Assembly: GCF_041886205.1 (NCBI RefSeq)
Contig: NZ_CP169029.1
Reading direction: 5' to 3' (one strand)
Source: Escherichia coli
GTDB taxonomy: Bacteria > Pseudomonadota > Gammaproteobacteria > Enterobacterales > Enterobacteriaceae
Length of the DNA stretch: 64,000 bases
Shown here: positions 1,992 to 31,023 of the stretch, one piece after another
How the letters are laid out: every line of letters starts with the position of its first letter
How positions within the stretch are numbered: position 1 is the stretch's first letter
Position numbers and translations under genes: made by a program
Notes under the pieces: model-generated
Told to the model about the DNA's origin: nothing
Databases searched by the model: none
Seen by the model: the letters and a program-made list of their open reading frames with translations, nothing else

Positions 1992-3743
1992 TTAACTTGC
2001 CAGCTTTCTGAGTTTTTCGATGCCCGTAGGTTCTTGTGCGAATAGAGGGACCAGCGCTACACGCTTAGCATGTCGGGCCATCACCGCCTCAATTTGTGGT
2101 CGTTCCTGCGTTGCTCGCTGACACAGTAGCGACGAACGTGTATCCGCAATAGAAAGGCAGTTATTGATTATCCAGCCCCAGGGATGAATCCCTGCGCGTT
2201 CAAGATCGGCCTGCAAATTAGCCGCTTCCAGTACGGGCGTGGTTTCAGGCAGCGTAACCAGCAGCACTTTGGTGCGTTGCGGATCCTGAAGTAGCATCAT
2301 TGGCGTAGTAAAGTGACCTTTTTCGCCCATTTTTTTCGCAATTTCACGGTGATAAGCCCCGGTGGCATCCAGCAATAACAGCGTGTGACCGGTTGGCGCG
2401 GTATCCATCACCACAAAACGTTTACCCGCCTCACGGATCACGCGCGAGAACGCCTGAAATACAGCAATCTCTTCGGTGCAAGGAGAGCGTAAATCCTCTT
2501 CCAGCAGTCGTTTCCCCGCTTCATCGAGATCTTTTCCCTTTGTCTCAAGGACATGCTGGCGATAGCGCTCGGTCTCTTCCTGCGGATTGATCCTGCTGAC
2601 CTGTAGGTTGGTAAGTGTGCCGTTTAGGGTAGTGTTAATGTGGGCAGCAGGATCGGAGGTTGTAAGATGCACATCGAATCCCATATCTGCCAGGCTGACG
2701 GCGATAGCTGCGGCCATTGTGGTTTTCCCCACGCCGCCTTTTCCCATCAGCATGATCAGACCGTGTTCACTGCGGGCAATATCATTCACTAGCTCAGAGA
2801 ATGACATGTTTTCAAAGAATTGCTGGCGCATCTGGTCAGAGAGCGGTGCAGGCTCGAAACGGGTATTAAAAAGACCTTTTAATGCAGGCACGCCAACCAT
2901 GTTCACCGGTTGAAGAAAGAGGGTATCTGCTGGAATGGTCGATAAACCGGCGGGTAAATTTACCAGGGCTTCCTGCTCACGCTGAACTATTGCCATTGCT
3001 AGTGGGTCATTTTGCTGCCCGGACTCAGGCAATACGCCGTTGATCACCAGATAATGATTTTTAAGACCAATCGCTGCCAGTTCTTCATGAGTGCGAGCGA
3101 CTTCCTGCAATGTTGATTTTTGCAGGCGTGCAACCAGCACCAGGCGGGTACGCTCAGGATCGGATAATGCTTCTACCGCATCAGCGTACTGCTCACGCTG
3201 TTTTTCCAGCCCAGCCATCGGGCCAAGACAGGAGGCACCATCGGGATTACTTTCAATAAAACTGCTCCAGGCACCGGGGAGCTGCAGAAGTCGTATGGTA
3301 TGGCCCGTTGGCGCGGTATCAAAAATGATGTGATCAAAGCGGGCCAGCAGAGAGGCATCGGTCAGTAAACCGGTGAACTCATCGAACGCCGCGATCTCCG
3401 TCGTACATGCTCCCGAAAGTTGTTCGCGTATACTATTTACAACCTCCTCAGGGAGAAGTCCTTTGATAGGGTCAACGATTCTGGCCCGATACTGTTCAGC
3501 GGCTTGCTGAGGATCAATTTCCAGCGCGGACAAACCGGGAACCGCTGTCACAGGAGTAATAGCGTTACCAATAGTTTGATTAAATACCTGACCGACATTC
3601 GACGCGGGGTCGGTGCTGACAAGCAGAACCCGTTTTCCCTGTTCCGCCAGATGGATAGCAGTTGCGCAGGAAATTGACGTTTTACCTACACCTCCCTTAC
3701 CGGTAAAAAACAGATAAGGCGGGATATTCTGTAAGAATTTCAT
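1992..3743 (-). CDS. arsA: arsenite-stimulated ATPase ArsA (two homologous halves)
   Basis: ORF-track 591 aa; likely start at internal Met (MKFLQNIPPYLFFTGKGGVGKTS); two P-loops GKGGVGKT present (N- and C-half). Confidence 0.93.
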   Translation of the reverse strand: MKFLQNIPPYLFFTGKGGVGKTSISCATAIHLAEQGKRVLLVSTDPASNVGQVFNQTIGNAITPVTAVPGLSALEIDPQQAAEQYRARIVDPIKGLLPEEVVNSIREQLSGACTTEIAAFDEFTGLLTDASLLARFDHIIFDTAPTGHTIRLLQLPGAWSSFIESNPDGASCLGPMAGLEKQREQYADAVEALSDPERTRLVLVARLQKSTLQEVARTHEELAAIGLKNHYLVINGVLPESGQQNDPLAMAIVQREQEALVNLPAGLSTIPADTLFLQPVNMVGVPALKGLFNTRFEPAPLSDQMRQQFFENMSFSELVNDIARSEHGLIMLMGKGGVGKTTMAAAIAVSLADMGFDVHLTTSDPAAHINTTLNGTLTNLQVSRINPQEETERYRQHVLETKGKDLDEAGKRLLEEDLRSPCTEEIAVFQAFSRVIREAGKRFVVMDTAPTGHTLLLLDATGAYHREIAKKMGEKGHFTTPMMLLQDPQRTKVLLVTLPETTPVLEAANLQADLERAGIHPWGWIINNCLSIADTRSSLLCQRATQERPQIEAVMARHAKRVALVPLFAQEPTGIEKLRKLAS

Positions 3744-3760
3744 ATGTCCCCCTGACCGGC

Positions 3761-4123
3761 TCAACAACAGTCGGTTTTTCCGCCACAGCAGTGTGTTGGT
3801 GCCAGTCCCACCTTCTCCAGCGGGATCCCAAACCAGCGGGCTAGCTCGGCGCGTTTCGGATAACGGCCCGCCATCACGGTTTCGCCTCCCAGTAAGATCA
3901 AGGGCAATCCTTCCGCCCCGGAAGCCTCAAGAAACGCTTTCGCTTTTTCGTTTTGCACGAAACTCATCGGTTGCTGCGCGAGATTGTAACGTTCGACCTG
4001 AACACCGCGGCTTTTCAGCCATTGCACATCTGCGGAAAAATCGACCAGCACCTGATCAACATCAGAACCACAGACGCCGGTACTGCAACACATCGCCGGA
4101 TCAAACACCGTTAACGTCTTCAT
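3761..4123 (-). CDS. arsD: arsenic metallochaperone / secondary repressor ArsD
   Basis: 120-aa ORF; MKTLTVFDPAMCCSTGVCG with the Cys12-Cys13-Cys18 triad and C-terminal CC pairs. Confidence 0.92.
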   Translation of the reverse strand: MKTLTVFDPAMCCSTGVCGSDVDQVLVDFSADVQWLKSRGVQVERYNLAQQPMSFVQNEKAKAFLEASGAEGLPLILLGGETVMAGRYPKRAELARWFGIPLEKVGLAPTHCCGGKTDCC

Positions 4124-4610: not shown

Positions 4611-4671
4611 GAAGAAGGTAATAGGTGTGAATTTTGAGTTGGGTATTCATTTGAAAGGAGGTCTGAATCAG

Positions 4672-4762
4672 GACGTAAAAAAACCGACTTTGTGTCGGTT
4701 TTTTACTTCCCAGCCCTGAGTTGGTGGCTCTGGCTGGAGTGAGAGAGCTCTTATCTAACAGT
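4672..4762 (-). ncRNA. agrB: agrB-like small RNA (antisense regulator of dinQ); agrA/agrB naming by position is tentative
   Basis: ~90-bp unit with hairpin aaaaaaaccgactttgtgtcggtttttt and a stretch (ctctggctggagtgagagagctcttatctaaca) repeated in the dinQ 5' region; K-12 carries agrA/agrB here. Confidence 0.5.
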
Positions 4763-23541: not shown

Positions 23542-26273
23542 CGCATCTGGAACTGGTTCCCGTCCCGCCTGTCGCGCAACTGGCGGGCGTGAGCCAGCAT
23601 TATGGAAAAACCGTTGCGCTGAACAATATTACTCTCGATATTCCGGCCCGCTGCATGGTCGGGCTGATTGGCCCGGACGGCGTCGGGAAGTCGAGCTTGT
23701 TGTCGTTGATTTCCGGTGCCCGCGTCATTGAGCAGGGCAATGTGATGGTGCTGGGCGGCGATATGCGCGATCCGAAGCATCGCCGCGACGTCTGCCCGCG
23801 CATCGCCTGGATGCCGCAGGGGCTGGGCAAAAACCTCTACCACACCTTGTCGGTGTATGAAAATGTCGATTTTTTCGCTCGCCTGTTCGGTCACGATAAA
23901 GCGGAGCGGGAAGTGCGAATTAATGAGTTGCTGACCAGCACCGGGTTAGCACCGTTTCGCGATCGTCCGGCAGGTAAACTCTCCGGCGGAATGAAGCAAA
24001 AACTTGGGCTGTGCTGTGCGTTAATCCACGACCCGGAACTGTTGATTCTTGATGAGCCAACAACGGGGGTTGACCCGCTCTCCCGCGCCCAGTTCTGGGA
24101 TCTGATCGACAGTATTCGCCAGCGGCAGAGCAATATGAGCGTGCTGGTCGCCACCGCCTATATGGAAGAGGCCGAACGCTTCGACTGGCTGGTAGCGATG
24201 AATGCCGGAGAAGTGCTGGCAACCGGCAGCGCCGAAGAGCTGCGGCAGCAAACGCAAAGCGCCACGCTGGAAGAAGCATTTATTAATCTGTTACCGCAAG
24301 CGCAACGCCAGGCGCATCAGGCGGTAGTGATCCCACCGTATCAACCTGAAAACGCAGAGATTGCCATCGAAGCGCGCGATCTGACCATGCGTTTTGGTTC
24401 CTTTGTTGCCGTTGATCACGTCAATTTCCGCATTCCACGCGGGGAGATTTTTGGATTCCTTGGTTCAAACGGCTGCGGTAAATCCACCACCATGAAAATG
24501 CTTACCGGACTGCTGCCCGCCAGCGAAGGTGAGGCGTGGCTGTTCGGGCAACCGGTTGATCCAAAAGATATCGATACCCGCCGTCGTGTAGGCTATATGT
24601 CGCAGGCGTTTTCGCTCTATAACGAACTCACCGTGCGGCAAAACCTTGAGTTACATGCCCGTTTGTTTCACATCCCGGAAGCGGAAATTCCCGCGCGAGT
24701 GGCTGAAATGAGCGAGCGTTTTAAGCTCAACGACGTTGAAGATGTTCTGCCGGAGTCATTGCCGCTCGGCATTCGCCAGCGGCTTTCGCTGGCGGTGGCG
24801 GTGATTCATCGCCCGGAGATGTTAATCCTCGATGAGCCTACTTCTGGTGTCGATCCGGTGGCGAGGGATATGTTCTGGCAGTTGATGGTCGATCTCTCGC
24901 GCCAGGACAAAGTGACTATCTTCATCTCCACCCACTTTATGAACGAAGCGGAACGTTGCGACCGTATCTCACTGATGCACGCCGGAAAAGTGCTCGCCAG
25001 CGGTACACCGCAGGAACTGGTTGAGAAACGCGGAGCCGCAAGTCTGGAAGAGGCATTTATCGCCTATTTGCAGGAAGCGGCAGGGCAGAGCAACGAAGCC
25101 GAAGCGCCGCCCGTGATACACGACACCACCCACGCGCCGCGTCAAGGATTTAGCCTGCGCCGTTTGTTTAGCTACAGCCGCCGCGAAGCACTGGAATTGC
25201 GCCGCGATCCGGTCCGTTCGACGCTGGCGCTGATGGGAACAGTGATCCTGATGCTGATAATGGGTTACGGCATCAGTATGGATGTGGAAAACCTGCGCTT
25301 TGCGGTGCTCGACCGCGACCAGACCGTCAGTAGCCAGGCGTGGACGCTCAACCTCTCCGGTTCCCGTTACTTTATCGAACAGCCGCCGCTTACCAGTTAT
25401 GACGAGCTTGATCGTCGGATGCGTGCGGGCGATATCACGGTGGCAATTGAGATCCCTCCCAATTTCGGGCGCGATATCGCGCGTGGTACGCCTGTGGAAC
25501 TCGGTGTCTGGATCGACGGAGCGATGCCGAGCCGTGCCGAAACGGTAAAAGGTTACGTGCAGGCCATGCACCAGAGCTGGCTACAGGATGTGGCGAGCCG
25601 ACAATCCACACCCTCCAGCCAAAGCGGGCTGATGAATATTGAGACGCGCTATCGCTATAACCCGGACGTAAAAAGCCTGCCAGCGATTGTTCCGGCGGTG
25701 ATCCCGCTTCTGCTGATGATGATCCCGTCAATGCTAAGCGCCCTTAGCGTGGTGCGGGAAAAAGAGTTGGGGTCGATTATCAACCTTTACGTGACTCCCA
25801 CCACCCGTAGCGAATTTTTGCTTGGCAAACAGCTACCGTACATCGCGCTGGGGATGCTGAACTTTTTCCTGCTCTGTGGCCTGTCGGTGTTTGTGTTTGG
25901 CGTACCGCATAAAGGCAGTTTCCTGACGCTCACCTTGGCGGCGCTGTTGTATATCATCATTGCTACCGGAATGGGGCTGCTGATCTCCACCTTTATGAAA
26001 AGCCAGATTGCCGCCATTTTCGGAACGGCGATTATCACGTTGATCCCGGCGACACAGTTTTCCGGGATGATCGATCCGGTAGCCTCGCTGGAAGGTCCAG
26101 GACGTTGGATCGGCGAGGTTTATCCGACTAGCCATTTTCTGACTATCGCCCGCGGGACGTTCTCGAAGGCGCTGGATCTGACTGATTTGTGGCAACTTTT
26201 TATCCCGTTGCTGATAGCCATACCGCTGGTGATGGGCTTAAGCATCCTGCTGCTGAAAAAACAGGAGGGATGA
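23538..26273 (+). CDS. rbbA: ribosome-associated ATPase RbbA (dual ABC ATPase fused to ABC-2 permease)
   Basis: 911-aa ORF; two Walker A motifs ([18 protein letters not shown]) plus C-terminal TM domain. Confidence 0.93.
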
Positions 26274-27397
26274 TGCGCCATTTACGCAATATTTTTAATC
26301 TGGGTATCAAAGAGTTGCGCAGTCTGCTCGGTGATAAAGCGATGCTGACGCTGATTGTCTTCTCGTTTACGGTGTCGGTGTATTCGTCAGCGACCGTTAC
26401 GCCAGGATCGTTGAACCTCGCGCCGATCGCCATTGCCGATATGGATCAATCGCAGTTATCGAACCGGATCGTTAACAGCTTCTATCGTCCGTGGTTTTTG
26501 CCACCGGAGATGATCACCGCCGATGAGATGGATGCCGGACTGGACGCCGGACGCTATACCTTCGCGATAAATATTCCGCCTAATTTTCAGCGTGATGTCC
26601 TCGCCGGACGCCAGCCGGATATTCAGGTGAACGTCGATGCCACGCGCATGAGCCAGGCATTTACCGGCAATGGGTATATCCAGAATATTATCAACGGTGA
26701 AGTGAACAGCTTTGTCGCGCGCTACCGTGATAACAGCGAACCGTTGGTATCGCTGGAAACCCGGATGCGCTTTAACCCGAACCTCGATCCCGCGTGGTTT
26801 GGCGGGGTGATGGCGATCATCAACAACATTACCATGCTGGCGATTGTATTGACCGGATCGGCGCTGATCCGCGAGCGTGAACACGGCACGGTGGAACACT
26901 TACTGGTGATGCCGATAACGCCGTTTGAGATCATGATGGCGAAGATCTGGTCGATGGGGCTGGTGGTGCTGGTGGTATCGGGATTATCGCTGGTGCTGAT
27001 GGTGAAAGGTGTACTGGGCGTACCGATTGAAGGCTCGATCCCGCTGTTTATGCTGGGCGTGGCGCTCAGTCTGTTTGCCACCACGTCAATCGGCATTTTT
27101 ATGGGGACGATAGCGCGTTCAATGCCGCAACTGGGGCTGCTGGTGATTCTGGTGCTGCTGCCGCTGCAAATGCTTTCCGGTGGTTCCACGCCGCGCGAAA
27201 GTATGCCGCAGATGGTGCAGGACATTATGCTGACCATGCCGACGACACACTTTGTTAGCCTCGCGCAGGCCATTCTCTACCGGGGGGCAGGATTCGAAAT
27301 CGTCTGGCCGCAGTTCCTGACACTGATGGCAATTGGCGGCGCGTTTTTCACCATCGCGCTGCTGCGATTCAGGAAGACGATTGGGACAATGGCGTAA
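26270..27397 (+). CDS. yhhJ: ABC-2 family transporter permease
   Basis: Start MMRHLRNIF overlapping rbbA stop (atgatg/tga); about 375 aa membrane protein. Confidence 0.9.
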
Positions 27398-27405
27398 GGA
27401 AGGGA

Positions 27406-27462
27406 AACTTGACTTCATACTGTGATGTCATACTATTGATGTCATAAAGTGAAGTCATAAGG
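27406..27462 (+). promoter_or_regulatory. putative promoter/operator of HicAB-like module
   Basis: ttgact -35-like hexamer; two direct repeats tgatgtcata bracketed by inverted acttca/tgaagt. Confidence 0.35.
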
Positions 27463-27555
27463 ACATGCCATGAGAACCAAGGTACAGGCTTTACGGAAGA
27501 AACAAAAAAATACATTGGATCAAATATTTAAAATTCCTGTTCCTCAAGGGATCAA

Positions 27556-27744
27556 GTGTCTGATATAGAGTCACTGGTTAAAGCATTAGGCGGAGAAATT
27601 AAGGAAGGAAGAGGTTCGCGTTGTAAGTTCATACTAAATATGAGCGTTGCGTGTTTCCATCGGCCTCATCCGTCGCCAGATACCGATAAAGGCGCTGTAG
27701 AAAGCGTGCGTGACTGGTTACTAAGTATAGGGGTAAAACCATGA
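27556..27744 (+). CDS. HicA-family toxin-like protein (non-canonical)
   Basis: 62-aa ORF, GTG start after aaggg RBS; C-terminal half aligns by eye with HicA (G-S-x-x-K-F ... R-P-H-P ... V-R-D-W-L); overlaps next gene by 4 nt. Confidence 0.7.
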   Translation: MSDIESLVKALGGEIKEGRGSRCKFILNMSVACFHRPHPSPDTDKGAVESVRDWLLSIGVKP

Positions 27745-28100
27745 TCAAACTGAAGACGCCAAACTCTATGGAGATTGCCGGGCAACCTGCTGTTATCACT
27801 TACGTGCCAGAACTGAATGCATTTCGTGGCAAATTCCTGGGCTTGTCAGGTTATTGTGATTTTGTCTCTGACAGCATTCAGGGGCTGCAAAAAGAAGGGG
27901 AACTTTCCCTGCGAGAGTATCTTGAGGATTGTAAAGCTGCGGGTATTGAGCCGTATGCGCGTACAGAAAAGATTAAGACCTTTACGTTACGCTATCCAGA
28001 ATCGCTGAGTGAACGCCTTAATAATGCGGCTGCGCAGCAACAAGTCTCTGTTAATACCTATATTATTGAAACACTGAATGAGCGTTTGAATCATTTATAA
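27741..28100 (+). CDS. HicB-family antitoxin-like protein with C-terminal ribbon-helix-helix
   Basis: 119-aa ORF; HicB-like N-terminal region and C-terminal FTLRYPESLSERLNNAAAQQQVSVNTYIIETL RHH-type DNA-binding motif. Confidence 0.72.
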   Translation: MIKLKTPNSMEIAGQPAVITYVPELNAFRGKFLGLSGYCDFVSDSIQGLQKEGELSLREYLEDCKAAGIEPYARTEKIKTFTLRYPESLSERLNNAAAQQQVSVNTYIIETLNERLNHL

Positions 28101-28154
28101 ATTTTAGCGGCGTACATTACGCAGAATATCTGCCTTTACAGGATCTATCTATGC

Positions 28155-28200
28155 AACTGAACTTAATTTTATAAATTAAGTTCAGTTAATATCTTTTCTT
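28155..28200 (+). terminator. rho-independent terminator after HicB-like gene
   Basis: Perfect 14-bp stem aactgaacttaatt/aattaagttcagtt followed by T-rich tract. Confidence 0.55.
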
Positions 28201-28219
28201 TCCTCGTTTCAGAAATAAC

Positions 28220-31023
<2,804 letters not shown>

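Follow-up and report, generated by a model that had tools for sequence, protein, structure and literature searches.

What does the short interval between yhhJ and nikR encode in this Escherichia coli chromosome: a working toxin-antitoxin module, cargo of a variable locus, or the remains of an older operon? The window analysed here is a 64,000-nucleotide stretch of contig NZ_CP169029.1 (assembly GCF_041886205.1). A preliminary description, made from the sequence of this window, had proposed that the roughly 0.8 kb separating the two genes hold a pair of HicA-like and HicB-like genes, with their own operator-like promoter and a strong terminator. In the window yhhJ ends at 27397 and the minus-strand gene nikR at 28220. 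The anatomy of the 822-bp interval and its flanks is as follows.

26273..27397, plus strand: yhhJ (ABC transporter permease), the left flank; homology to K-12 stops at its stop codon.
27409..27436, plus strand: sigma-70-like hicAB promoter, TTGACT-16-TACTAT, assigned by consensus match.
27410..27459, plus strand: four operator-like boxes, TGAnnTCATA, starting at 27410, 27423, 27437 and 27450 (spacing 13/14/13 nt).
27470..27744, plus strand: hicA pseudogene, 91 codons in the intact allele, with a Shine-Dalgarno-like AAGGA at 27459-27463.
27470..27568, plus strand: N-terminal fragment ORF of 32 codons, ending at a TAG that arises from the frameshift.
27556..27744, plus strand: hicA remnant ORF of 62 codons with a GTG start, AAGGGA (27546-27551) lying 5 nt upstream.
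27741..28100, plus strand: hicB, intact, 119 aa, with AGGGG (27729-27733) 7 nt before its ATG.
28155..28187, plus strand: terminator-like hairpin with a perfect 15-bp AT-rich stem, a 3-nt loop and a T-rich tail on the plus strand.
28220..28621, minus strand: nikR, the right flank; homology to K-12 returns from 28214.

The regulatory elements proposed in the preliminary description are readily recognized. TGAnnTCATA occurs four times in the 64-kb window (1.24 occurrences expected), and all four copies lie here, overlapping the -35 and -10 elements and the leader of hicAB; the cores of boxes 1 and 4 are reverse-complementary to each other. TGAnnTCA boxes are also found upstream of hicA in four genera (E. 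coli, Citrobacter, another Enterobacteriaceae genus and Serratia), a conservation that supports their role as a putative operator, presumably bound by the ribbon-helix-helix domain of HicB. The hairpin downstream of hicB lies in a 119-nt region with a folding energy of -25.5 kcal/mol (z = -3.5), consistent with the proposed terminator, and a search of 27200-28400 against Rfam returned no family at E up to 1.

The two proteins are HicA and HicB by Pfam, PHROGs, predicted folds and RefSeq annotation. The 62-residue remnant matches the Pfam family HicA_toxin (PF07927) at E=8.1e-9, and the 91-residue protein obtained by repairing the reading frame (see below) matches it at E=3.7e-9 over residues 30-80; in PHROGs, HicA matches phrog_8887 (‘toxin’, E=4.4e-26), whose profile extends over residues 11-91. 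HicB, identical to WP_000593555.1, matches Pfam HicB (PF05534, E=3.5e-15, residues 60-112) and phrog_9151 (‘HicB-like antitoxin’, E=6e-13, residues 8-118), along with weaker matches to the Arc and CopG ribbon-helix-helix families of Pfam (E about 0.02) and a match to an Arc-like repressor family of PHROGs (1.3e-6). None of HicA, HicB and the 62-residue ORF matched a model in NCBIfam; sequence searches of the PDB yielded nothing for HicA, and noise plus Arc for HicB, while a profile built from the HicA family recovered a single HicA chain (E=0.38). Operons of this type were already known, in that RefSeq names both genes and flags the present allele as a frameshifted pseudogene. Misannotation appears to have been propagated in several public records, where members of the HicA family go by the name ‘hexulose-6-phosphate synthase’ and the HicB partner is called ‘DNA repair protein’.

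Structure prediction agrees with these assignments. The AF2 model of repaired HicA (pLDDT 94.9) has a dsRBD-type fold whose residues 30-86 form an alpha-beta-beta-beta-alpha core (helix 30-39, strands 43-46, 51-56 and 59-64, helix 74-86), which superposes on the HicA chains 6g26_E, 1whz and 6hpb_A with target-normalised TM scores of 0.65-0.67, at weak Foldseek E-values of 0.5-3. The HicB model (pLDDT 85) comprises strands at 9-12, 15-22, 27-32 and 40-43, followed by a helix at 46-67 and two C-terminal helices at 87-99 and 104-118. Every one of its best fold matches in the PDB is a HicB antitoxin (6g26_B and 6g26_A at probability 1.00, 6u0i and 4p7d), with 4p78_A, 6hpb_B and 2dsy among the further matches and the Arc repressor 1b28 at probability 0.93. 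The model and its PDB matches thus identify an N-terminal partial RNase H fold; a C-terminal ribbon-helix-helix, as the preliminary description had recognized, is found by Pfam, by PHROGs, in the AF2 helices and in the Arc fold match.

The toxin gene is another matter. Compared with the intact allele of strain 6EVA, in which hicA measures 276 nt and encodes the 91-residue protein WP_001259381.1, the window differs at one position in 822 bp, through loss of a G at 27558 from the Trp30 codon (TGG to TG-), and restoring one G to the window gene yields WP_001259381.1. Since this deletion is all that distinguishes the two alleles, a single gene has been split into the 62-residue and 32-residue ORFs. 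The preliminary description was therefore right about the family of both proteins, and about the 4-nt overlap (ATGA) by which the remnant ORF runs into hicB, but it took the remnant of a 91-codon hicA for a complete toxin gene. RefSeq records hicA of strain PT62, whose sequence matches the window at 100% identity, as a pseudogene of 275 nt, ‘frameshifted’, and PGAP applies this flag to hicA in five of the strains whose records were retrieved. With hicA frameshifted and hicB intact, what the sequence describes does not appear to be a functional type II toxin-antitoxin module.

A single-base indel in a GG dinucleotide, with the rest of the interval identical to the intact allele, might reflect an error of sequencing or assembly in a strain that really possesses the 91-residue HicA. 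We consider this extremely improbable: GG is not a long homopolymer, and a 45-nt probe centred on the deletion detects it in 10 of 5426 complete E. coli genomes, determined in different laboratories from strains of different countries and hosts (pigeon, bear, frog, baboon, pig, cattle and human). Four of these ten carriers share the yhhJ haplotype of the window and have since gained SNPs of their own. Its presence in ten independent genomes leads us to reject a sequencing error. One carrier, PapM-32-1 (2435-3975 of its locus), bears the same deletion on an O157-like background that includes a different yhhJ allele, HicB R58L (WP_000593554.1) and the O157-type sugar island described below; there the deletion either arose again by recurrent mutation or was moved by recombination. 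Programmed ribosomal frameshifting at the deletion was also considered and rejected: it would require a -1 slip, and no slippery X XXY YYZ heptamer is apparent on inspection around ...AUC AAG UGU CUG...; the lesions of other lineages include plain nonsense codons.

Loss of hicA is common in the species. Megablast of 27300-28300 found the whole interval in 2069 of the 5426 genomes, the RefSeq names of the genes being ‘HicA family toxin’ and ‘HicB family antitoxin’, and the module alone (27420-28190) is present in 2073. Full-length hicA is missing in at least 892 of these 2073 carriers (43%), through four different lesions: a TAA at codon 2 (O104:H4 type; 793 genomes) and a change of Q26 to TAA (82 genomes), both counted with allele-specific probes, the window deletion (10 genomes, by the 45-nt probe), and a frameshift at about codon 49 (P0101-type; 7 genomes, by a 90-nt probe). 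Further rare lesions occur among protein database entries. The codon-2, Q26 and codon-49 alleles, which together account for at least 882 genomes, offer no start codon (ATG, GTG or TTG) ahead of M58, so that by their sequences hicA is clearly null, and tolerated, in these strains.

The O104:H4 example of the codon-2 allele (2984-3320 of its locus, corresponding to window 27398-27744) has also lost 14 bp, exactly one operator repeat, leaving a promoter that still reads TTGACT-16-TAAAGT. The 5' half of its hicA differs from the window at many positions, mostly synonymously, and its 3' half and the entire hicB match the window exactly. The allele is a mosaic, and the pattern looks like a recombination breakpoint inside hicA.

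Might the module in the window nevertheless be active, with the 62-residue ORF acting as a minimal HicA that HicB neutralises? The deletion places the GTG at 27556, out of frame in the intact allele, in frame with the HicA core, and the resulting remnant spans the whole predicted dsRBD core (residues 30-86) at a length typical of solved HicAs (57-70 aa); hicB, moreover, is intact and conserved. Residual toxin synthesis is possible because the remnant combines this core with an in-frame GTG and a Shine-Dalgarno-like AAGGGA. What the remnant lacks, however, is the N-terminal extension and W30, a loss that is likely to matter because the extension is conserved and has a pLDDT above 90 in the model. 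The gene is a pseudogene in the PGAP annotation, and a clearly null toxin is tolerated in the other genomes counted above. On balance we find an active module improbable.

In K-12 MG1655 the corresponding slot reads nikR-rhsB-yhhH-yrhC-yhhI-yhhJ, in agreement with the rhsB element that the preliminary description had placed at this junction. Homology to K-12 breaks exactly at the yhhJ stop codon and, on the other side, 6 nt before the nikR stop codon, so that 816 bp of the window face 6682 bp of K-12; the K-12 slot holds no remnant of hicAB, and the absence of the pair from it, likewise proposed earlier, is complete. A left junction of the K-12 type is present in 2906 genomes (54%). In O157:H7, hicAB is followed by a seven-gene island before nikR (12732-18341 of that locus), encoding a class II aldolase, HPr, an FGGY kinase, PTS IIC, IIB and IIA, and a GntR regulator; this island, also found in some other strains, stands in place of the hairpin segment at 28105-28213 of the window.

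The slot thus has at least three states (hicAB alone, hicAB with the PTS/aldolase island, and rhsB-yhhH-yhhI), which is one reason to regard the pair as recently acquired addiction or anti-phage cargo in a variable Rhs-type hotspot, a reading close to that of the preliminary description. In the same direction, plasmids as well as Burkholderia and Ralstonia phages carry relatives at about 50% identity, and a defence role has been proposed for HicA modules (PMC10865869). The wider distribution of the pair argues otherwise. Citrobacter has the order yhhJ-hicAB-nikR in the same slot, and hicAB adjoins nikR at a second Enterobacteriaceae locus; HicA and HicB identities at these two loci are 79-85%, and those of the flanking genes are 94.7% for yhhJ, 96.2% and 79.7% for nikR, and 84.0% and 61.6% for nikE. 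All 2077 module matches in E. coli are chromosomal, and lie in the yhhJ-nikR slot wherever checked. The interval in the window contains no integrase, IS element, Rhs element or flanking repeat, PADLOC models match neither protein, and at least 43% of carriers have a broken toxin gene. The synteny beside nikR in Citrobacter and at the second locus suggests that hicAB settled in the slot long ago and did not arrive as Rhs-hotspot cargo, and we give recent acquisition little credence. The comparison of these sequences points to an Rhs element that has replaced hicAB, or alternates with it, in K-12-like strains.

Elsewhere in the order, Serratia carries the pair between murJ and argS. On either side of the Citrobacter hicAB lies a copy of a GC-rich direct repeat of 57 nt (3871-3927 and 4634-4690, 93% identical and 763 nt apart), which begins at the yhhJ stop codon. 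The E. coli window lacks this repeat, which might be an element of the REP type or a substrate for cassette excision.

The protein encoded by intact alleles has features of its own. An alignment of 57 HicA homologues, drawn from Enterobacterales and more distant bacteria, shows that the N-terminal part is conserved (L16 and P23 invariant; T15, F20 and W30 at >=90%), and in the AF2 model it forms an extension of about 29 residues consisting of two helices. The toxicity of every experimentally studied HicA depends on a glycine and, two positions further on, a histidine at the start of beta2 (Gly22/His24 in the Burkholderia pseudomallei and Neisseria gonorrhoeae proteins; PMC11594946, PMC12297915). 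The present family has G49-S50-R51 at this point, with G49 and R51 invariant in the 57 members; beta2 starts at residue 51 of the model, and in the profile alignment ‘GsR’ stands opposite the ‘GSH’ of the solved HicA 9svk_A (E=0.38). The conserved histidines of the family are His64 (>=90%) and His67 (invariant), and from the hairpin register of the model His64 should lie opposite Arg51 across the beta2-beta3 hairpin. Because an invariant arginine occupies the position of the catalytic histidine, we treat RNase activity as presumptive even for the intact allele. The homology to HicA stands; the RNase mechanism is not simply transferable to this arginine-containing subfamily, whose active site may have moved (to His64) or which may lack RNase activity altogether.

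The antitoxin gene, for its part, appears to have been retained. Across 10 E. coli loci, hicB has 12 synonymous and 1 non-synonymous variable sites, which gives P=2e-7 against neutrality on what are small numbers, and WP_000593555.1 is identical in nearly all of the hicB loci retrieved. Within the clade that already bears the window deletion, hicB has undergone 4 synonymous and 0 non-synonymous changes. Part of the hicB divergence may be older than the loss of the toxin; the substitution pattern nonetheless suggests that hicB is under purifying selection while hicA is repeatedly lost. An orphan HicB could protect the cell as an ‘anti-addiction’ shield when phages or plasmids bring in related HicA toxins, or it could be a domesticated ribbon-helix-helix regulator. 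The joint reading, in which HicB has its own job after toxin loss and the arginine-type HicA has a relocated site or is not an RNase, is one that we hold only tentatively and think rather unlikely as a whole.

Taken together, the locus is very probably a chromosomal Class 4 hicAB operon, disarmed by a 1-nt deletion at codon 30 of hicA and still encoding its antitoxin and autorepressor. In the intact form, one sigma-70 promoter would drive both genes; the 91-residue HicA, a protein of dsRBD fold, would by homology be a ribosome-independent RNase, and the N-terminal partial RNase H domain of HicB would bind and mask it, while ribbon-helix-helix dimers of HicB on the TGAnnTCA boxes over the promoter would repress the operon. 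RNase activity, neutralisation and operator binding are attributed to the pair as we infer them from these relationships. The codon-30 deletion prevents synthesis of the full-length toxin, leaving the antitoxin and autorepressor still encoded.

Counts of live toxin-antitoxin or defence systems should accordingly leave out the module of this strain, which should not be treated as Rhs-linked cargo either. Genome annotation is little affected, RefSeq already having both names and the pseudogene flag. At the scale of a population the locus offers a clean natural example of toxin-antitoxin decay, on which the idea that a function keeps orphan antitoxins in place can be tested simply; two modest points of residual interest are why hicB persists once the toxin has gone and whether RNase activity extends to the arginine subfamily.

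A literature search by gene neighbours and RefSeq accessions found no experimental work on this specific pair, and the papers searched mention the accession of neither protein; a paper on ‘hicA/hicB’ expression in O157:H7 (PMC5854682) cites only the K-12-type system and leaves the assayed locus unstated. The nearest relatives in RefSeq are WP_001259381.1 and WP_001259385.1 (HicA family toxin, 91 aa) and WP_000593555.1 (HicB family antitoxin). Class 4 hicAB operons consist of hicA followed by a hicB whose product has a C-terminal ribbon-helix-helix (Gerdes 2024, PMC10865869), and the window locus resembles their representatives in B. pseudomallei (6g26) and Yersinia pestis (HicAB3; 4p78, 4p7d) in its gene order, the 4-nt overlap, the dsRBD core of HicA, the partial RNase H and ribbon-helix-helix domains of HicB, and the palindromic boxes over the promoter; Class 4 proteins are also the best PDB fold matches of both window models. 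Unlike these examples, HicA of the window has no sequence-level match to any solved HicA (profile E=0.38), its family has the extension of about 29 residues, R51 in place of histidine and conserved histidines at 64 and 67, and its gene is frameshifted. The K-12 HicAB system (yncN/ydcQ; 6hpb) belongs to the same superfamily and likewise pairs a presumed RNase toxin with an autorepressing antitoxin (PMC11594946), but it occupies another locus, its HicB is a helix-turn-helix protein (Class 3) in contrast to the ribbon-helix-helix HicB of the window, and its HicA has 58 residues with His23. Also related are the proteins of phrog_8887 and phrog_9151, for example from Burkholderia phage ST79 and Ralstonia phage Dina, which at about 50% identity represent the same subfamily, extension included; those copies are phage-borne morons, whereas the E. 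coli copy is chromosomal and syntenic.
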